Origin: a virus
Taxonomy: Duplodnaviria; Heunggongvirae; Uroviricota; Caudoviricetes
IMG/VR virus record: IMGVR_UViG_2617270992_000014
DNA: 41,104 nt
Reading direction: 5' to 3' (one strand)
This document shows, piece by piece, positions 1,419-12,609 of this stretch; the stretch's first letter is position 1; the number at the start of each line of letters is the position of its first letter. The translations under genes and the position numbers were made by a program. Under the pieces are notes generated by a model. The model had not been told where the DNA came from. It was given only the letters and a program-made list of their open reading frames with translations, and made no database searches.

Positions 1419-3833
1419 TTAAAAATCAGCCTGACTCGGGATCAGTTTTTGCCAGATAGCTGAAACTTGTTTTGCCTGGTGACGTGCATCATCGAGTGCA
1501 TTGTGAGGTACACCTTCGAATGGAATAGTCATTCTGACATCAAAGCCAATGGAATTTCCCAGTTCAACAATTGTGCGTACATCGCGATCGTTGCAGTAGC
1601 GCCACGGGCAGGGGATGCCCTGTCGTTCATATGAACGGCGTAAAATTACGTTGTCGAAGTTGGCTCCATTTCCCCAGACTCGAACATAAAATCCACAGGA
1701 GTTTTCATCTATAAATTCCCGCAATTGCAGTAGTGCATCATCTAACGGAATTTCATCGGTCAGAATGGCAGATTGCGCCTCACGTGATTGCTTAAGCCAC
1801 CATTTAATGACGTCACGATCAATGACTCCGCCAGCAGTATCCAGATCGATGGTCTTGCTAAACTCCGGCCCCATCTCTCCGGTCTGCGGATCGAAAAATA
1901 TTGCACCTAATGAGATAATCGGGGCGTCGGGATTTTTTCCCATGGTTTCAAGGTCGATCATCAGGTGGTGCCGCACTCTGCTGGTGGATGTGATAACGTG
2001 ATGACCGTTCACCGCAATTAAGGGATCTGCTGTCTCGCCAGTTTCACTATCGCTGGCGTGGTCCTGAGCGCTGCCAGCATTCTCATTGTGCGGATGTTCA
2101 GCGCCTTCCATTTCCTCCGGATCATTTTCCTTAGCTTCAACCTGATTCTCTTCATCGAATATTTCTTGGTATGTTGCGTCGCCCATCACCGCACCACAGT
2201 CAGGGCAGTTACCCCCGCCAGTCTGGCCGCAGGCATTGCAGGCTATTTCCGGTTCCTGTTGCACTACTGGCTCAGGTTGTTTCACATCCGGGCTGTTTTT
2301 TTCCGTTTCTGGCTGGTTCTGGTACACAGAATCGCGAGTCTGGATCCCCTTCACCCATTTCGGATCGTTCGGGTCGCTAATCCCTGCAACAAATTCACCA
2401 CGTGATACTGCAAGCAGCTGATTGGCGTCAGGCTGGCTGATATTGGCTGCCTGCATAATTTTGTTTACTTCGTCAGCGGTAACTTTTACCTGATTAACCG
2501 GATCTATCTGTGCCTGAGCATCCAGCGATTGCGTGTCCTGGCGATGTTCAGTTGCATTCGGTTCCATTGTTTCAGCCGTTGCCTGTTCATCTGCCATTGC
2601 GTCAGACGGTTGTGATTTTTCCACATTATTTTTTTCTTCTTCTGTTTCGCGTTCAGCAGCCAGTTCGCGGTTAACTTCTTCCAGGATATCTTTTTCCGGC
2701 GTATGCCGGGCAGCTGTGAGAGTTTCCTTGCTGGGGTTCTCGTGATCAGTCTCTGTTAAATAGGCGTTGATATACCCCTGAAGACGTCCCGGGTAATGAT
2801 AAAACTCAGGGTGTGCGCTCCGGATAAGTGCAAAAATAGCGGCGCGGGAATAATCCAGGATACCCGGGATTGCGCGAAGTGCTGCGGACCATTCTTTGAA
2901 CGGACTTTCTTTCTTCCGGACGATTTCTTTTGCGCGACGATAAACGCTGCCCGGAATTTCATAAATATTAAAATCCATCGGAAGTGTGGCCGCTGCAATC
3001 TCCACATCCAGCGTATCGAAGGTGTGTACTAAATTCGGATTGCGATCGGTTTTGTTCCCTCCACCGGCATTAGCACCGGAAGCCGTGCGGGTGATGCGTG
3101 AAACACGATTTCCTTTCATCCACTCTTTTGTCAGCAGACCGCGATCGGTGTAGTCAGCGCCCAGGTATGCTTCGAAAAAAGCAGTCATCAGTCCCAGGTC
3201 TGAATTACCAGGATTAGGGAAAACTTTGTCAGTGTCACGAACCAGTTTGTGGAGATCGCGAATTTCCAGCGGTTCGAGTTGCGCTGCTTTATTTGAGATG
3301 GCCAGCGCGGTAACGGCGGGAAGTTTTTCATCCTGTGCGTTATGTAATGCGCGTAGTTCGCCCCGCGAAACGTGTGTGATCGGTTTTTCGCTGCCGTGCT
3401 GTGCCAGCCATCGAACAGGCAGAATCTGACCTGAAACCGGCAGGAGCATATTCTCCTCAATCTCAGCCATGTCTTCGCCGTTGACGTTGGTATTGTCAGT
3501 GCTGGCTGGTTTATCCTGAACAGAGGGCGAGGGCGCGATAAGCACCATTGTGATACCATCTTCCCCGCCTTTTTCGTATCGGTTGCAGAATTCGGTATCA
3601 AACACGCCTTCCGGAGGAAGGTCATTCACAACGGGTAAATGGACGCGAACAGGTTTTTTAAAATCCTCTTCGTCAAATCCTGCATCGTCCATTGCGACAA
3701 CACCGCGTGATATTGCAACCGATAATTTTTTTGCTGTGCGCCAGTAAAAACCGCCTTTAATCCCAAGACGTTTTCTGACTTTGTCATTTTTGGCTTCGTA
3801 ATACAGTGCAATTTCTTCTTTATCAGTGCTCAT
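1419..3833 (-). CDS. Large multidomain early protein with C-terminal DEDDh (DnaQ-like) 3'-5' exonuclease domain, central Cys4 zinc-ribbon and acidic low-complexity linker
   Basis: 804-aa ORF. C-terminal about 190 aa shows motifs IDLETMG, NGANFDNVIL and HNALDDARH consistent with DEDDh exonuclease motifs I-III. CNACGQTGGGNCPDCG is a zinc-ribbon motif. N-terminal about 550 aa unrecognised. Confidence 0.7.
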   Translation of the reverse strand: MSTDKEEIALYYEAKNDKVRKRLGIKGGFYWRTAKKLSVAISRGVVAMDDAGFDEEDFKKPVRVHLPVVNDLPPEGVFDTEFCNRYEKGGEDGITMVLIAPSPSVQDKPASTDNTNVNGEDMAEIEENMLLPVSGQILPVRWLAQHGSEKPITHVSRGELRALHNAQDEKLPAVTALAISNKAAQLEPLEIRDLHKLVRDTDKVFPNPGNSDLGLMTAFFEAYLGADYTDRGLLTKEWMKGNRVSRITRTASGANAGGGNKTDRNPNLVHTFDTLDVEIAAATLPMDFNIYEIPGSVYRRAKEIVRKKESPFKEWSAALRAIPGILDYSRAAIFALIRSAHPEFYHYPGRLQGYINAYLTETDHENPSKETLTAARHTPEKDILEEVNRELAAERETEEEKNNVEKSQPSDAMADEQATAETMEPNATEHRQDTQSLDAQAQIDPVNQVKVTADEVNKIMQAANISQPDANQLLAVSRGEFVAGISDPNDPKWVKGIQTRDSVYQNQPETEKNSPDVKQPEPVVQQEPEIACNACGQTGGGNCPDCGAVMGDATYQEIFDEENQVEAKENDPEEMEGAEHPHNENAGSAQDHASDSETGETADPLIAVNGHHVITSTSRVRHHLMIDLETMGKNPDAPIISLGAIFFDPQTGEMGPEFSKTIDLDTAGGVIDRDVIKWWLKQSREAQSAILTDEIPLDDALLQLREFIDENSCGFYVRVWGNGANFDNVILRRSYERQGIPCPWRYCNDRDVRTIVELGNSIGFDVRMTIPFEGVPHNALDDARHQAKQVSAIWQKLIPSQADF

Positions 3834-5311: not shown

Positions 5312-5668
5312 TTACTCGAGAGGAAATTGGTTATGAATACAATCAAGTTTTCTTGCCCAGAATGTGGTGGCGAAGTCTTTGACACATCCTTTAAGCCGCA
5401 GGGCTCTGACAGTTTCGCGGGAGCCATCTGCAAAAATTGTGGTCACCTTGTAACTGAAGATGAGTCCTCGCAGTTCGATGACGAAATCGTTGACAATATC
5501 TTCGGTGCACTCACCAGAGACTTTCTGAAATAAAGGCGCATACCGCTTAGTTACCGCTCTGATAACTCTTACCTGTCCGGTAATGGCGCTGATGTCAATA
5601 TAAAGCGCCATTGCTGCTTCTTTGCCGATCCTGGGATGCCTTCCATTCTGATGTTTGACTTCGCCCAC
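5312..5668 (-). CDS. Hypothetical first gene of the leftward early operon (GTG start); competes with the antisense Zn-ribbon ORF
   Basis: 118-aa ORF with GAGGA about 8 nt upstream of the GTG on the minus strand. It is not arginine-rich and does not look like an N antiterminator. Fully contains a plus-strand ORF. Confidence 0.3.
   Translation of the reverse strand: MGEVKHQNGRHPRIGKEAAMALYIDISAITGQVRVIRAVTKRYAPLFQKVSGECTEDIVNDFVIELRGLIFSYKVTTIFADGSRETVRALRLKGCVKDFATTFWARKLDCIHNQFPLE
5327..5533 (+). CDS. Small Cys4 zinc-ribbon protein encoded antisense to the leftward early operon
   Basis: 68-aa ORF with CPECGG and CKNCGH motifs (classic C4 zinc ribbon); AGAGGA about 8 nt upstream of the ATG; acidic C-terminus. 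Confidence 0.4.
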   Translation: MVMNTIKFSCPECGGEVFDTSFKPQGSDSFAGAICKNCGHLVTEDESSQFDDEIVDNIFGALTRDFLK

Positions 5669-5856
5669 TGAGAAATCCTCTGTTTCCCCTTAACGCCGGG
5701 GTAGCGGAACAAAAACCTGCTGCATAGTTATTAAAGTTGAACCCTGCCGTCATGTTCTTACGCCTCGGGCTGGCTACTTAACCCCTGACCACTGCCTGGT
5801 AACTCGAAGTATTGCCCTGCGTTCTGTGGGGCGGGGTGGGTTGGTATGTTGTTAAG

Positions 5857-5870
5857 GTAACAAGAGTTAC
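5857..5870. promoter_or_regulatory. Candidate left operator (OL-like) palindrome GTAACAAGAGTTAC
   Basis: 14-bp GTAAC-N4-GTTAC inverted repeat, same architecture as the two palindromes in the repressor-cro intergenic region; lies between the repressor terminator and the first leftward gene. Confidence 0.5.
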
Positions 5871-5910
5871 CATTAGAGTCAATACAATGTTGCAAAAGGT
5901 ACACTTGAGG

Positions 5911-5937
5911 GCATAAAAAACCCGCAATGAATGCGGG
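5911..5937 (-). terminator. Intrinsic terminator downstream of the repressor gene
   Basis: Plus-strand AAAAAA-CCCGCA-ATGAA-TGCGGG reads on the minus strand as a 6-bp GC stem followed by a T-run, immediately after the repressor stop. Confidence 0.6.
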
Positions 5938-5944
5938 TTCTGAC

Positions 5945-6619
5945 TCAGTCTAAGTATTGATGTATTTGTGAAACTTTACCTTTAATGGTGTAACCACCAT
6001 TCAGTTCGATGGGTTTGTAAAGCGGATTCAGTGACAACAGATAGATGTTTGGTCCGTCAATCGCAACTTTTTTTAGTGTTACGTTTGGCGTTCCTTCCAA
6101 TTGGATTAAGATTATTTTTCCCACCAGTTCTCTAATGTTACTTGAGCATGGTGTGATCAGCACGGTAGATCCGTCGGGGATGGTTGGGAGGCCGTTAGAG
6201 TTTGTCATCGCATCTCCCTCAACATGCAATAAAAAAGAGTTTTCAGCGGTTTTTGTCATGACATCAACCCAATTCTTAATACCAGGAATCTCGGTTACTG
6301 GACAACTCATATCCCAATAACCAGCCTGTTCCCACGTTAAAACGGGCAACCGGGCGATGTTGTCACTAATGTAAGGGTACTGATTCAGACGCAGATCATC
6401 GGTTTTATCGTGACAGTCCTTTCCATAAAGAATCCATTCAGGAGATTTGGAAAGCAATTTTGACAGTAGATGCAAATTCTCACCGTCAGGTTTTGAAGAG
6501 CCATTTTCCCATTTTGTTACGGATACACGAGATATGCCGATTGCTTTCGCAACCTGCTGTTGGGTTAATCCAACGTCTTTTCGACGATTCCGAATACGTT
6601 CGCTGATAGTGTTTTTCAT
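5945..6619 (-). CDS. CI-like prophage repressor (N-terminal HTH plus C-terminal LexA/S24-type autopeptidase domain); longer alternative starts at 6661 and 6718
   Basis: HTH segment LTQQQVAKAIGISRVSVTKWENG; C-terminal domain resembles the S24 peptidase fold. The start at 6619 places both operator palindromes in the intergenic region and implies a leaderless transcript as in lambda cI; the longest ORF would overlap cro. Confidence 0.8.
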   Translation of the reverse strand: MKNTISERIRNRRKDVGLTQQQVAKAIGISRVSVTKWENGSSKPDGENLHLLSKLLSKSPEWILYGKDCHDKTDDLRLNQYPYISDNIARLPVLTWEQAGYWDMSCPVTEIPGIKNWVDVMTKTAENSFLLHVEGDAMTNSNGLPTIPDGSTVLITPCSSNIRELVGKIILIQLEGTPNVTLKKVAIDGPNIYLLSLNPLYKPIELNGGYTIKGKVSQIHQYLD

Positions 6620-6633
6620 GTAACCAATGTTAC
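6620..6633. promoter_or_regulatory. Candidate right operator palindrome GTAACCAATGTTAC
   Basis: 14-bp GTAAC-N4-GTTAC inverted repeat abutting the proposed repressor start codon. Confidence 0.55.
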
Positions 6634-6667
6634 TACCAAGTGATGTTGCTATGGTTGACATTTCTAT

Positions 6668-6681
6668 GTAACTATTGTTAC
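6668..6681. promoter_or_regulatory. Candidate right operator palindrome GTAACTATTGTTAC
   Basis: Second GTAAC-N4-GTTAC palindrome 48 bp from the first; TTGACA hexamer at 6655-6660 between them; lies about 30 bp upstream of the cro start. Confidence 0.55.
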
Positions 6682-6710
6682 CCTCCCGCTCGAAATAACA
6701 GGAGAGTTTT

Positions 6711-6923
6711 ATGTTCAAAGATGATGTTCTGCGCTATTTCAAAAAAAAGCGACTAGTAGCTGAGGCTCTTGGAATTTCACATGTGGCTGTTGTGCGGTGG
6801 AAAGCAGTTATTCCCAAACTTCGCGCAATGGAACTGGATGAAATTACTAACGGTGAATTGAAATACAACCCAGAACTTTACAAGAAGCAGGATAGCACCT
6901 CGAACGAAGGAAAGAATGATTAA
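6711..6923 (+). CDS. cro: Cro-like small HTH regulator (YdaS-like)
   Basis: 70-aa ORF divergent from the repressor, AGGAG 7 nt upstream; HTH segment RLVAEALGISHVAVVRW. Confidence 0.75.
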   Translation: MFKDDVLRYFKKKRLVAEALGISHVAVVRWKAVIPKLRAMELDEITNGELKYNPELYKKQDSTSNEGKND

Positions 6924-7348
6924 TGAAAATCAAGCATGAACACATCCGCATGGCGATGAATGTCTGGGCGCATCCGGACGGTGAAAAAGTTCCGGCAGCT
7001 GAAATAACCCGGGCTTATTTTGAGCTTGGTATGACGTTCCCGGAGCTATATGACGACAGCCATCCGGAAGCCCTGGCTCGCAATACTCAGAAAATATTCC
7101 GCTGGGTGGAGAAAGACACCCCTGATGCGGTTAAAAAAATTCAGGCGTTGTTACCAGCGATCGAAAAAGCAATGCCACCTCTGCTGGTGGCCCGAATGCG
7201 CAGCCACAGTTCAGCCTATTTTCGGGAGCTGGTGGAGACGCGGGAACGACTGGTGAGAGACGCTGATGATTTTGTCGCAGTGGCGATCGCTGGTTTCAAC
7301 CAGATGAATCGTGGTGGCCCGGCGGGAAATATTGTGGTTGTGCATTGA
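6923..7348 (+). CDS. YdaT-like protein in the CII position (regulator of unknown mechanism)
   Basis: 141-aa ORF directly after cro (ATGA-type junction); size and position match the ydaS-ydaT pair of Rac-type prophages as recalled. Confidence 0.55.
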   Translation: MKIKHEHIRMAMNVWAHPDGEKVPAAEITRAYFELGMTFPELYDDSHPEALARNTQKIFRWVEKDTPDAVKKIQALLPAIEKAMPPLLVARMRSHSSAYFRELVETRERLVRDADDFVAVAIAGFNQMNRGGPAGNIVVVH

Positions 7349-12242: not shown

Positions 12243-12453
12243 AAACGGTTTGCGGGAAAAAGGGAGTTAAGTAAAATTGCTGCGGGTGCTTGAGGCTATC
12301 TGTCTCAGGCATGAACACCAAAAGGCAGATAGAGAAAAGCCCCAGTTAACATTACGCGTCCTGCAAGACGCTTAACATTAATCTGAGGCCCAATCTATGT
12401 CTCACAAATGTAGGTTAGCCTCTTACGCGCCGAAAGGCAAGGAGAAGCAGGCT

Positions 12454-12609
12454 ATGAAGCAGCAAAAGGCGATGTTAATCGTCCTGATCGTCATCTGTTT
12501 AACCGTCATAGCGACGGTACTGGTAACGAGGAAAGACCTCTGCGAGGTACGAATCCGAACCGGCCAGACGGAGGTCGCTGTCTTCACAGCTTACGAACCT
12601 GAGGAGTAA
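12454..12609 (+). CDS. hok: Hok/Gef-family type I toxin (small membrane peptide)
   Basis: MKQQKAMLIVLIVICLTVIATVLVTRKDLCEVRIRTGQTEVAVFTAYEPEE is near-identical in pattern to HokD/RelF-type toxins as recalled; AAGGAG upstream. The track ORF extends upstream to 12397 in the same frame. Confidence 0.8.
   Translation: MKQQKAMLIVLIVICLTVIATVLVTRKDLCEVRIRTGQTEVAVFTAYEPEE

Follow-up and report, generated by a model that had tools for sequence, protein, structure and literature searches.

The immC regions of phages P22 and 21 comprise a repressor gene (c2 or cI), cro, three right operators (OR1-3) and three left operators (OL1-3). OR3 of these phages (ATTTAAGATGACTTAACT) directly abuts the ATG of c2, and the centres of the right operators are spaced by 24 and 24 bp, resulting in 48 bp from OR1 to OR3. 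The repressor gene is followed by a terminator and then by the OL sites, of which OL1 and OL2 are 35 bp apart. The 41,104 bp of DNA analysed here, referred to as the window (IMG/VR record IMGVR_UViG_2617270992_000014), represent a lambdoid Escherichia coli prophage whose immunity region resembles this arrangement: OR1 and OR3 are again 48 bp apart, divided into 23 and 25 bp by a candidate middle site, and OL1 is 32 bp from an OL2 candidate. We consider it quite likely that this region is a lambdoid immunity switch on the P22/phage 21 plan with a GTAAC half-site of its own, that its repressor starts at the ATG at position 6619, and that the promoter for repressor maintenance (PRM) most likely gives rise to a leaderless mRNA.

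The repressor gene (5945-6619, minus strand) encodes 224 amino acids plus the stop codon and is of the cI/c2 type, with an HTH_3 and a Peptidase_S24 domain supported by Pfam, PHROGs and relatives in the PDB. HTH_3 covers residues 9-63 (Pfam E = 2e-16), includes the recognition helix ISRVSVTKWE, and matches the N-terminal domains of P22 c2 and of the 434 repressor in the PDB. Peptidase_S24 extends over residues 92-216 (Pfam E = 9.6e-17) and aligns to structures of the C-terminal domain of lambda cI. The P22 and phage 21 repressors have the same two domains and are 36% identical to that of the window over 95% of the length. The lambda repressor, which also combines a helix-turn-helix (HTH) with an S24 autocleavage domain, can be aligned over residues 11-217. 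The divergent cro gene (ATG at 6711, plus strand, 70 amino acids) is separated from the repressor gene by 91 bp and ends at 6923; its Shine-Dalgarno (SD) sequence AGGAG is located at 6700-6704. Its product belongs to the P22_Cro family (PF14549, E = 2.8e-16), as does Cro in P22 and in phage 21, and was also assigned to PHROG 409 and to the RefSeq Cro/CI family.

Operators and their conservation

The initial annotation had listed one 14-bp palindrome at 5857-5870, 6620-6633 and 6668-6681. This palindrome, GTAAC-N4-GTTAC (GTAACNNNNGTTAC), matches exactly at these three positions and nowhere else in the window, whereas dinucleotide-preserving shuffles contained 0.02 matches on average and none of 100 reached three. 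Allowing up to two mismatches revealed neither additional GTAACNNNNGTTAC-like sites nor a clustering near the region. In a weight matrix built from the sites of related loci only, with the window left out, the exact sites took ranks 1 to 3 of 41,091 positions (OR1, OR3 and OL1, in this order), followed by OL2 at rank 4 and OR2 at rank 221. These two weak sites become visible only through a GGTAC variant of the half-site and through positional homology. The operator sites probably number five rather than three: the three strong ones had been recognized correctly and the weak ones at 5889-5902 and 6645-6658 overlooked.

The site at 6620-6633, which reads GTAACATTGGTTAC on the repressor strand, lies immediately next to the ATG of the repressor gene, as had been described. 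It had been named the first right operator, but under the lambda/P22 convention it is OR3, and the strong distal site at 6668-6681 (GTAACTATTGTTAC) is OR1. OR1 overlaps the spacer and the -10 element of the putative rightward early promoter pR. The OR2 candidate at 6645-6658 (repressor strand, TCAACCATAGCAAC) falls between them, at a distance of 25 bp to OR3 and of 23 bp to OR1, and overlaps the -35 element of pR. On the left, OL1 (5857-5870; GTAACAAGAGTTAC on the plus strand, GTAACTCTTGTTAC in the direction of transcription) overlaps the spacer and -10 element of the putative leftward promoter pL; this is where pL had been expected, and the position is kept in relatives. The OL2 candidate at 5889-5902 (GTTGCAAAAGGTAC) is located 32 bp from OL1, upstream of the pL -35 element.

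Related loci were retrieved by protein similarity and the window-type operator was not used as a query, so that the sample is unbiased with respect to the operator. It comprised 20 diverged loci from Yersinia, Buttiauxella, Kluyvera, Kosakonia, Edwardsiella, Erwinia, Rahnella, Klebsiella, Celerinatantimonas and others, to which 4 closer relatives (65-89% identity) and 3 isolated phages (Pantoea AH07, Pectobacterium ZF40 and Klebsiella ST13-OXA48phi12.2) were added. In total, 28 distinct loci from many genera of the Enterobacterales, with repressors 42-89% identical, were compared. GTAAC-type sites were found at the same positions in these loci, which answers the suggestion to look for the palindrome in other prophages. 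The two strong right operators are exactly 48 bp apart in 28 out of 28 loci. In 27 of these the ATG of the repressor gene adjoins the proximal site; in the exception, L022, 3 extra nt separate OR3 from the ATG. A weaker middle site, separated by 23 bp from the distal operator and by 25 bp from its proximal counterpart, reads CAAACAACAGTTAC in most loci, CAAACAATAGGTAC in L009, TCAACCATGGTTAC in L027 and TCAACCGAAGGTAC in L025. Thus, all three right sites are recognizable at intervals of about 23-25 bp in the relatives, whereas in the window OR1 and OR3 are clear and the middle site is degenerate.

The left side is equally ordered. In nearly every locus the repressor stop codon is followed first by a terminator hairpin, then by a weaker operator, a -35 element TTGAC and finally a strong operator. 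The strong site, equivalent to OL1, lies 6-7 nt downstream of the -35 element, and the weaker one is found 33-35 bp from it, in the place of OL2; in L025 it is perfect. A pattern scan of viral contigs with a composite signature (OR1, 34 nt, OR3, ATG) matched at least 120 contigs. Among the matches listed, 73 of the 78 distinct proteins encoded downstream of the signature contain the helix xSRV[ST][VI]TKWE. In one matching contig, L093 (IMGVR_UViG_2617270973_000009, 41,103 bp), the signature occupies 6617-6681, as it does in the window.

The recognition helix xSRVSVTKWE is invariant across the family and is the most conserved part of the protein, whereas identity in the C-terminal domain has dropped to about 43%. 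As far as can be judged from sequence, operator specificity correlates with this helix. P22 and phage 21 carry 18-bp operators (ATTTAAG-N4-CTTAAAT) in place of the 14-bp GTAAC-N4-GTTAC and the helix SNVAISQWE in place of SRVSVTKWE. Furthermore, OR2 of the window is far more degenerate than in these phages and only two left sites are recognizable. As the geometry is kept and the half-site differs, the window represents a P22-type switch with a different half-site. Phage mEp390, whose repressor is 42% identical, has the same geometry with three sites, the proximal one abutting the ATG, but GTAGG-N4-CCTAC palindromes and the helix VNRVTVTGWE. This phage (L034) is a natural example of covariation between helix and half-site within the P22-type layout.

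Phages AH07, ZF40 and ST13-OXA48phi12.2 encode repressors of the same family (about 42-43% identity) and have GTAAC-type operators at the same distance of 48 bp, again with the ATG adjoining the proximal site. AH07 and phi12.2 possess paired left operators; in ZF40 a single GTAAC-type left site was found at the threshold used. They differ from the window in diverged C-terminal domains, in the presence of the catalytic serine, and in a distal half-site that usually reads GGTAC. Our literature searches found no published operator analysis of these three phages and no description of a GTAAC-N4-GTTAC operator. Lambda resembles the putative layout of the window in its divergent PRM and PR promoters, its tripartite operator and an OL at pL; the lambda operators are 17 bp long and lambda Cro belongs to a different fold class.

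The palindromes might have another origin, as chance repeats, as sites bound by Cro alone, or as sites of a host or another phage DNA-binding protein. The superficially similar GTAA..TTAC core of LacI/GalR-family operators speaks for such an origin, although the GalR core spans 12 bp and the palindrome 14 bp. Chance is excluded by the expectation of 0.02 matches. GTAAC-type palindromes co-occur with this repressor family only, and P22, phage 21 and mEp390 lack them and have palindromes of another sequence in the corresponding places. Moreover, the sites overlap both putative early promoters, and the recognition helix is the best conserved segment of the repressor. An origin other than repressor binding is therefore highly improbable. 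With sites on the putative pR and pL, positions kept in 28 distinct loci and an invariant recognition helix, the proposal of a candidate immunity specificity is supported. The specificity class is new, but the switch belongs to a well-known kind, and the concept of the lambdoid switch stays unchanged.

Start codon of the repressor gene

The frame of the repressor gene offers three starts. The ATG at 6619-6617 on the minus strand directly abuts the operator at 6620, the longest open reading frame begins at a TTG at 6718, and a third in-frame start, an ATG at 6661, had been overlooked. The initial annotation had preferred the shortest version, and the geometry that it described, an ATG adjoining the operator, is correct and recurs in 27 of the 28 loci. 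It had also been pointed out that the longest version overlaps cro and buries the operators in coding sequence; TTG 6718 indeed overlaps the cro ATG at 6711. The start at 6718 is over-extended as had been supposed, but the annotated competitor is 6661, which RefSeq/PGAP uses for the identical gene of E. coli MIN10 (238 amino acids, WP_000103683.1).

A start at 6661 would place OR3 and part of OR2 within the coding sequence. Beyond the PGAP annotation, this version can draw on a frame that is open from 6661 and indeed remains open upstream of 6619 throughout the window's own clade, on an ATG kept in close relatives, and on several database proteins of 234-240 amino acids that carry an extension of the type M.T..T....NIGYMK. 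In 11 of the 20 diverged loci, however, no in-frame ATG, GTG or TTG occurs between the operator-abutting ATG and the upstream stop codon. The same closure was found in 46 of 78 distinct viral-contig proteins, among the matches listed.

The conserved residues of the extension are explained by the DNA. In an alignment with homologues down to 43% identity, many database proteins have an N-terminal extension ending in xNIGYMK, where x is S, G, R or C. NIGY corresponds to AAC-ATT-GGT-TAC, and all four residues observed at x have NGT codons. Since NIGY and the preceding residue are the operator GTAACATTGGTTAC read in frame (GT-AAC-ATT-GGT-TAC), it is the DNA and not the peptide that is conserved. 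The ATG at 6661 itself consists of an A followed by TGTCAA, the complement of the pR -35 element TTGACA, and is replaced by GTG in L025. Conservation within the extension is limited to the residues that the operator and the -35 element encode, and the residues between these two stretches vary far faster than the body of the protein. In addition, HTH_3 starts at residue 9 when counted from 6619, and P22 c2, whose solved N-terminal domain begins with MNTQL, starts at the equivalent operator-abutting ATG. A start at 6661 is thus very unlikely, and from the sequence comparison we conclude that the repressor starts at ATG 6619 and that 6718 and 6661 are both over-extensions. Together with the gene identities, the position-conserved, non-random operators and their overlap with promoter-like elements, this start codon is established by sequence and comparison.

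Start calls within the family are inconsistent. Those compared were WP_000103683.1, ZF40 gp10 (L033), AH07 gp41 (L032) and Klebsiella phi12.2 (L035). Many records, including the RefSeq protein and phage records, are extended upstream through the operators, and one begins too late, at Met5. The 238-amino acid RefSeq model and several phage records begin too early because the operator DNA mimics a conserved peptide.

Promoters and the maintenance transcript

The assignment of the promoters rests on reading of the sequence and on conservation, that of the terminator on folding and conservation. The putative pR (6655-6684, plus strand) consists of the -35 element TTGACA (6655-6660), an 18-nt spacer and the extended -10 element TGT-TACCCT (6676-6684). 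The putative pL (5854-5882, minus strand) has TTGACT (5882-5877) as -35 element, a 17-nt spacer and the extended -10 element TGT-TACCTT, whose hexamer is located at 5859-5854. In both promoters the TG and TA of the extended -10 element come from the promoter-proximal operator half, which for pR is provided by OR1. An equivalent of pR, TTGCTA-N17-TGT-TACCTT, is conserved in the relatives, where the -35 elements of pR and pL keep fixed distances from OR1 and OL1. The intrinsic terminator of the repressor gene (5914-5939, minus strand), a G+C-rich hairpin of 8-9 bp followed by a U run, separates the gene from pL. Its predicted folding energy is -15.7 kcal/mol (z = -3.7), none of 200 shuffled sequences was as stable, and a hairpin with a T run is present at the same place in nearly all relatives.

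As the initial annotation had stated, no SD sequence precedes ATG 6619: in the 24 nt upstream there is no match of at least 4 nt to AAGGAGGT. In the relatives, any SD-like match is located about 16-20 nt upstream or inside the operator. A -10 candidate for PRM, TAACAT (6627-6632, minus strand), lies inside OR3 and 7 nt before the A of the ATG. This hexamer, in the form TAACNT, is found in 28 of 28 loci with an invariant final T (AT in 26, CT and GT in one each) and always ends 7 nt before the ATG. At the same position of OR1, read on the same strand, 27 of 28 loci have A and one has G. OR3 of P22 contains TAAGAT, a TAnnnT in the repressor-distal half as in the window, and OR3 of mEp390 contains TAGGAT. 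The missing SD sequence and the conserved TAACNT 7 nt before the ATG make a leaderless, or nearly leaderless, repressor mRNA from PRM plausible.

The parallel with lambda cI that had been drawn for this start holds with respect to the missing SD sequence, but the best analogue is P22/phage 21, where OR3 abuts the c2 ATG. As our literature searches found no accessible statement of the PRM start position in P22, the P22 comparison rests on directly read sequences. An RNA hairpin formed by the OR3 palindrome was also considered as a translational element and dismissed, its five base pairs being judged too weak.

Leaderless transcripts have been described for other repressor genes of this kind. 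Lambda cI is transcribed from PRM into a leaderless mRNA that has no SD sequence (cited in PMC8630535), and leaderless transcription was shown experimentally for cI of PY54 (PMC4488713) and for the PaaR2 gene of CP-933P, in the latter case by rapid amplification of 5' cDNA ends and N-terminal sequencing (PMC8630535). The PaaR2-YdaS-YdaT region of CP-933P in E. coli O157:H7 resembles that of the window in being a lambdoid prophage immunity region with a YdaT (CII-like) gene behind a cro-like gene, and its operators overlap PRM, PR and a PL (PMC8630535). PaaR2 is, however, a different and shorter repressor heading a toxin-antitoxin operon, and its operators are 18-bp inverted repeats with the consensus GTTTAGTAA (PMC8630535). 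With a reported mass of about 15 kDa, it is judged not to belong to the S24-domain proteins.

Several points weigh against the proposed switch. A consensus scan for sigma-70 promoters and terminators over positions 5500-6950 detected no promoter and missed the repressor terminator. It did not find pR and pL because TACCCT and TACCTT match only three of six positions of the -10 hexamer and rely on the extended TG. The -35 candidate of PRM, ACCATA (6655-6650), is poor. In lambda, 10 nt separate OR3 from the ATG and an OR2 centred at -42 permits activation, whereas in the window OR3 occupies -14 to -1 and, with a transcript starting at the AUG, OR2 would be centred at about -32.5 and not at about -42, so that positive autoregulation in the style of lambda is doubtful. 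Given this location of OR2, the assignment of PRM may be wrong, and the invariant T in the OR3 spacer could reflect tuning of the affinity for Cro or repressor instead of a -10 element. By score, OR2 of the window is indistinguishable from the background; its position is therefore what supports it, and we regard it as a candidate. Finally, the functions of operators and repressor are all inferred.

Alternatively, ATG 6619 could be correct and the maintenance mRNA leadered. In this case transcription would start upstream, for instance at a promoter overlapping OR1/OR2 or at a CII-dependent establishment promoter in cro/cII, translation would initiate internally without an SD sequence, and OR3 would work as a roadblock or as a promoter-proximal operator instead of lying on the -10 element. 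The poor -35 element of PRM and the fact that OR2 would cover it are in line with this idea, as are the 3 extra nt in L022. On the repressor strand, OR1 of the relatives is followed by ATT, which gives a -10-like TACATT identical to the -10 element of their pL; the corresponding hexamer of the window, TACATA, lacks the key final T, and no -35 element is suitably distant from it. The pR operon also contains a YdaT/CII-like gene, and if its product acts like lambda CII, an establishment transcript with a long leader must exist. The invariant TAACNT, which in all 28 loci precedes the AUG by 7 nt, and the three leaderless cI-type genes (lambda; PaaR2, PMC8630535; PY54, PMC4488713) argue for a start at the AUG, and a leadered maintenance mRNA appears unlikely, though it is the most serious of the alternatives.

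The switch would operate as follows. Repressor dimers at OR1 (6668) and at the weak OR2 (6645), probably binding cooperatively, would cover the -35 and extended -10 elements of pR, and this occlusion would turn off cro, cII and the replication genes. Repressor at OL1 (5857), together with the weak OL2 (5889), would act over pL and silence the leftward DicB-type operon. PRM most likely starts at or within a few nt of the AUG, so that the maintenance mRNA would be leaderless and free of an SD sequence, and OR3 (6620) would cover positions -14 to -1 of the gene. Cro is expected to use the same sites as the repressor in this kind of switch, and a filled OR3, occupied either by excess repressor (negative autoregulation) or by Cro, would shut PRM.

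Autocleavage site, genomic context and significance

The repressor lacks the catalytic serine of the G-x-S-M motif. In a HMMER alignment to the lambda repressor (3bdn), Ala137 takes the position of lambda Ser149, which corresponds to LexA Ser119; its codon is GCG (6209-6211, minus strand), and GDAM replaces GDSM/GESM. In this respect the window also differs from P22, phage 21 and lambda. The remaining parts of the cleavage apparatus are present. EQAGYW (residues 97-102), with the Ala-Gly scissile bond at residues 99-100, aligns with lambda VQAGMF, and QAG is kept across relatives. TLKK (residues 181-184) aligns with lambda TFKK, which contains the catalytic Lys192, and KK is invariant in the homologue alignment.

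According to the codon table, most relatives examined have a serine codon (TCN) at this site, including those that are 87% and 65% identical. An alanine codon is found in the window and L028/29 (GCG) as well as in the Salmonella loci L023/24 (GCA) and hence in at least two lineages, E. coli and Salmonella. Among the viral-contig matches listed, alanine occurs in 9 of 72 scorable distinct proteins, equivalent to 37 of 114 scorable loci. LexA S119A and lambda S149A set the precedent for loss of self-cleavage upon this exchange. The Ala137 protein is a homologue of the family, but by analogy it is predicted not to self-cleave, and the RecA-stimulated (SOS) route, by which induction normally proceeds, is not expected to work. 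No antirepressor was recognized among the early open reading frames scanned.

The block from 5700 to 7000 is 100% identical to a prophage of MIN10 next to tRNA-Ser/mtfA, and 702 of 5,426 complete E. coli genomes (about 13%) contain at least 80% of the length of this immunity block. At the DNA level it matched no isolated phage in the phage collection searched. The second gene of the pR operon (6923-7348, plus strand), located where P22 has c1, is of the YdaT family (PF06254) and matches PHROG 163, annotated as CII-like transcriptional activator (E = 1.5e-44). It is followed by genes for a DnaT-domain replication protein, a lambda P homologue and a Q antiterminator. The early right arm furthermore contains the sok antisense RNA of a hok/sok-type locus (12284-12459, plus strand; Rfam RF01794, 118.8 bits).

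On the left, YdfC and DicB-type genes were identified. The RefSeq annotation of MIN10 was rejected as a guide to this arm, as the window is mosaic there and strain EC6 is the better match. The untranslated stretch just downstream of pL (5700-5855) shares 94-99% identity with the stretch located at this position in many lambdoid phages with different immunity regions, whereas the relatives of the GTAAC family have another, internally conserved pL leader block that includes GAAGTAGCCGCC and AGGCGTATGAA. In the pL leader (5690-5850) neither an Rfam match nor a stable fold (z = +1.6) indicated a put- or nut-like RNA, and, in a further difference from P22 and phage 21, no N-type antiterminator gene was recognized next to it. 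A small zinc-ribbon gene of the ECs_2282 family (CPECG...CKNCG; 5327-5533, plus strand) lies on the opposite strand within the pL unit, so that transcription from pL would be antisense to it. Further to the left, an 804-amino acid exonuclease (1419-3833, minus strand) contains both an Exonuclease VIII (RecE-like) domain and, at the C-terminus, an Rv2179c-like 3'-5' exoribonuclease domain.

The P22-type layout recurs with at least three half-sites (GTAAC, GTAGG and TTAAG). A more far-reaching interpretation of this is conceivable, to which we give little credence as a whole. In this class of switches, with OR3 on -14 to -1 and OR2 at about -32.5 of a leaderless PRM, lysogeny would be kept solely through negative autoregulation of a weak, constitutive promoter, or else through a geometry of activation that differs from lambda's, and the sizeable alanine sub-lineage would be uncoupled from the SOS response, being either locked in as a domesticated element or induced independently of RecA.

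The analysis has provided a useful operator code and a corrected start codon, together with two additional weak sites, a geometry of the P22 type and a repressor with a Ser-to-Ala exchange. The start codon corrects a systematic annotation error, since the gene is begun too early in the RefSeq 238-amino acid model and in several phage records. The predicted operator code, GTAAC-N4-G[T/G]TAC, applies to a repressor family whose immunity region is found in about one in eight complete E. coli genomes and which is also represented in prophages and isolated phages of Salmonella, Klebsiella, Yersinia, Pantoea, Pectobacterium and others. With this code, superinfection immunity and cross-immunity between these phages become predictable. 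The natural Ser-to-Ala repressor should make a common prophage type non-inducible by DNA damage, which bears on prophage stability in pathogenic E. coli.

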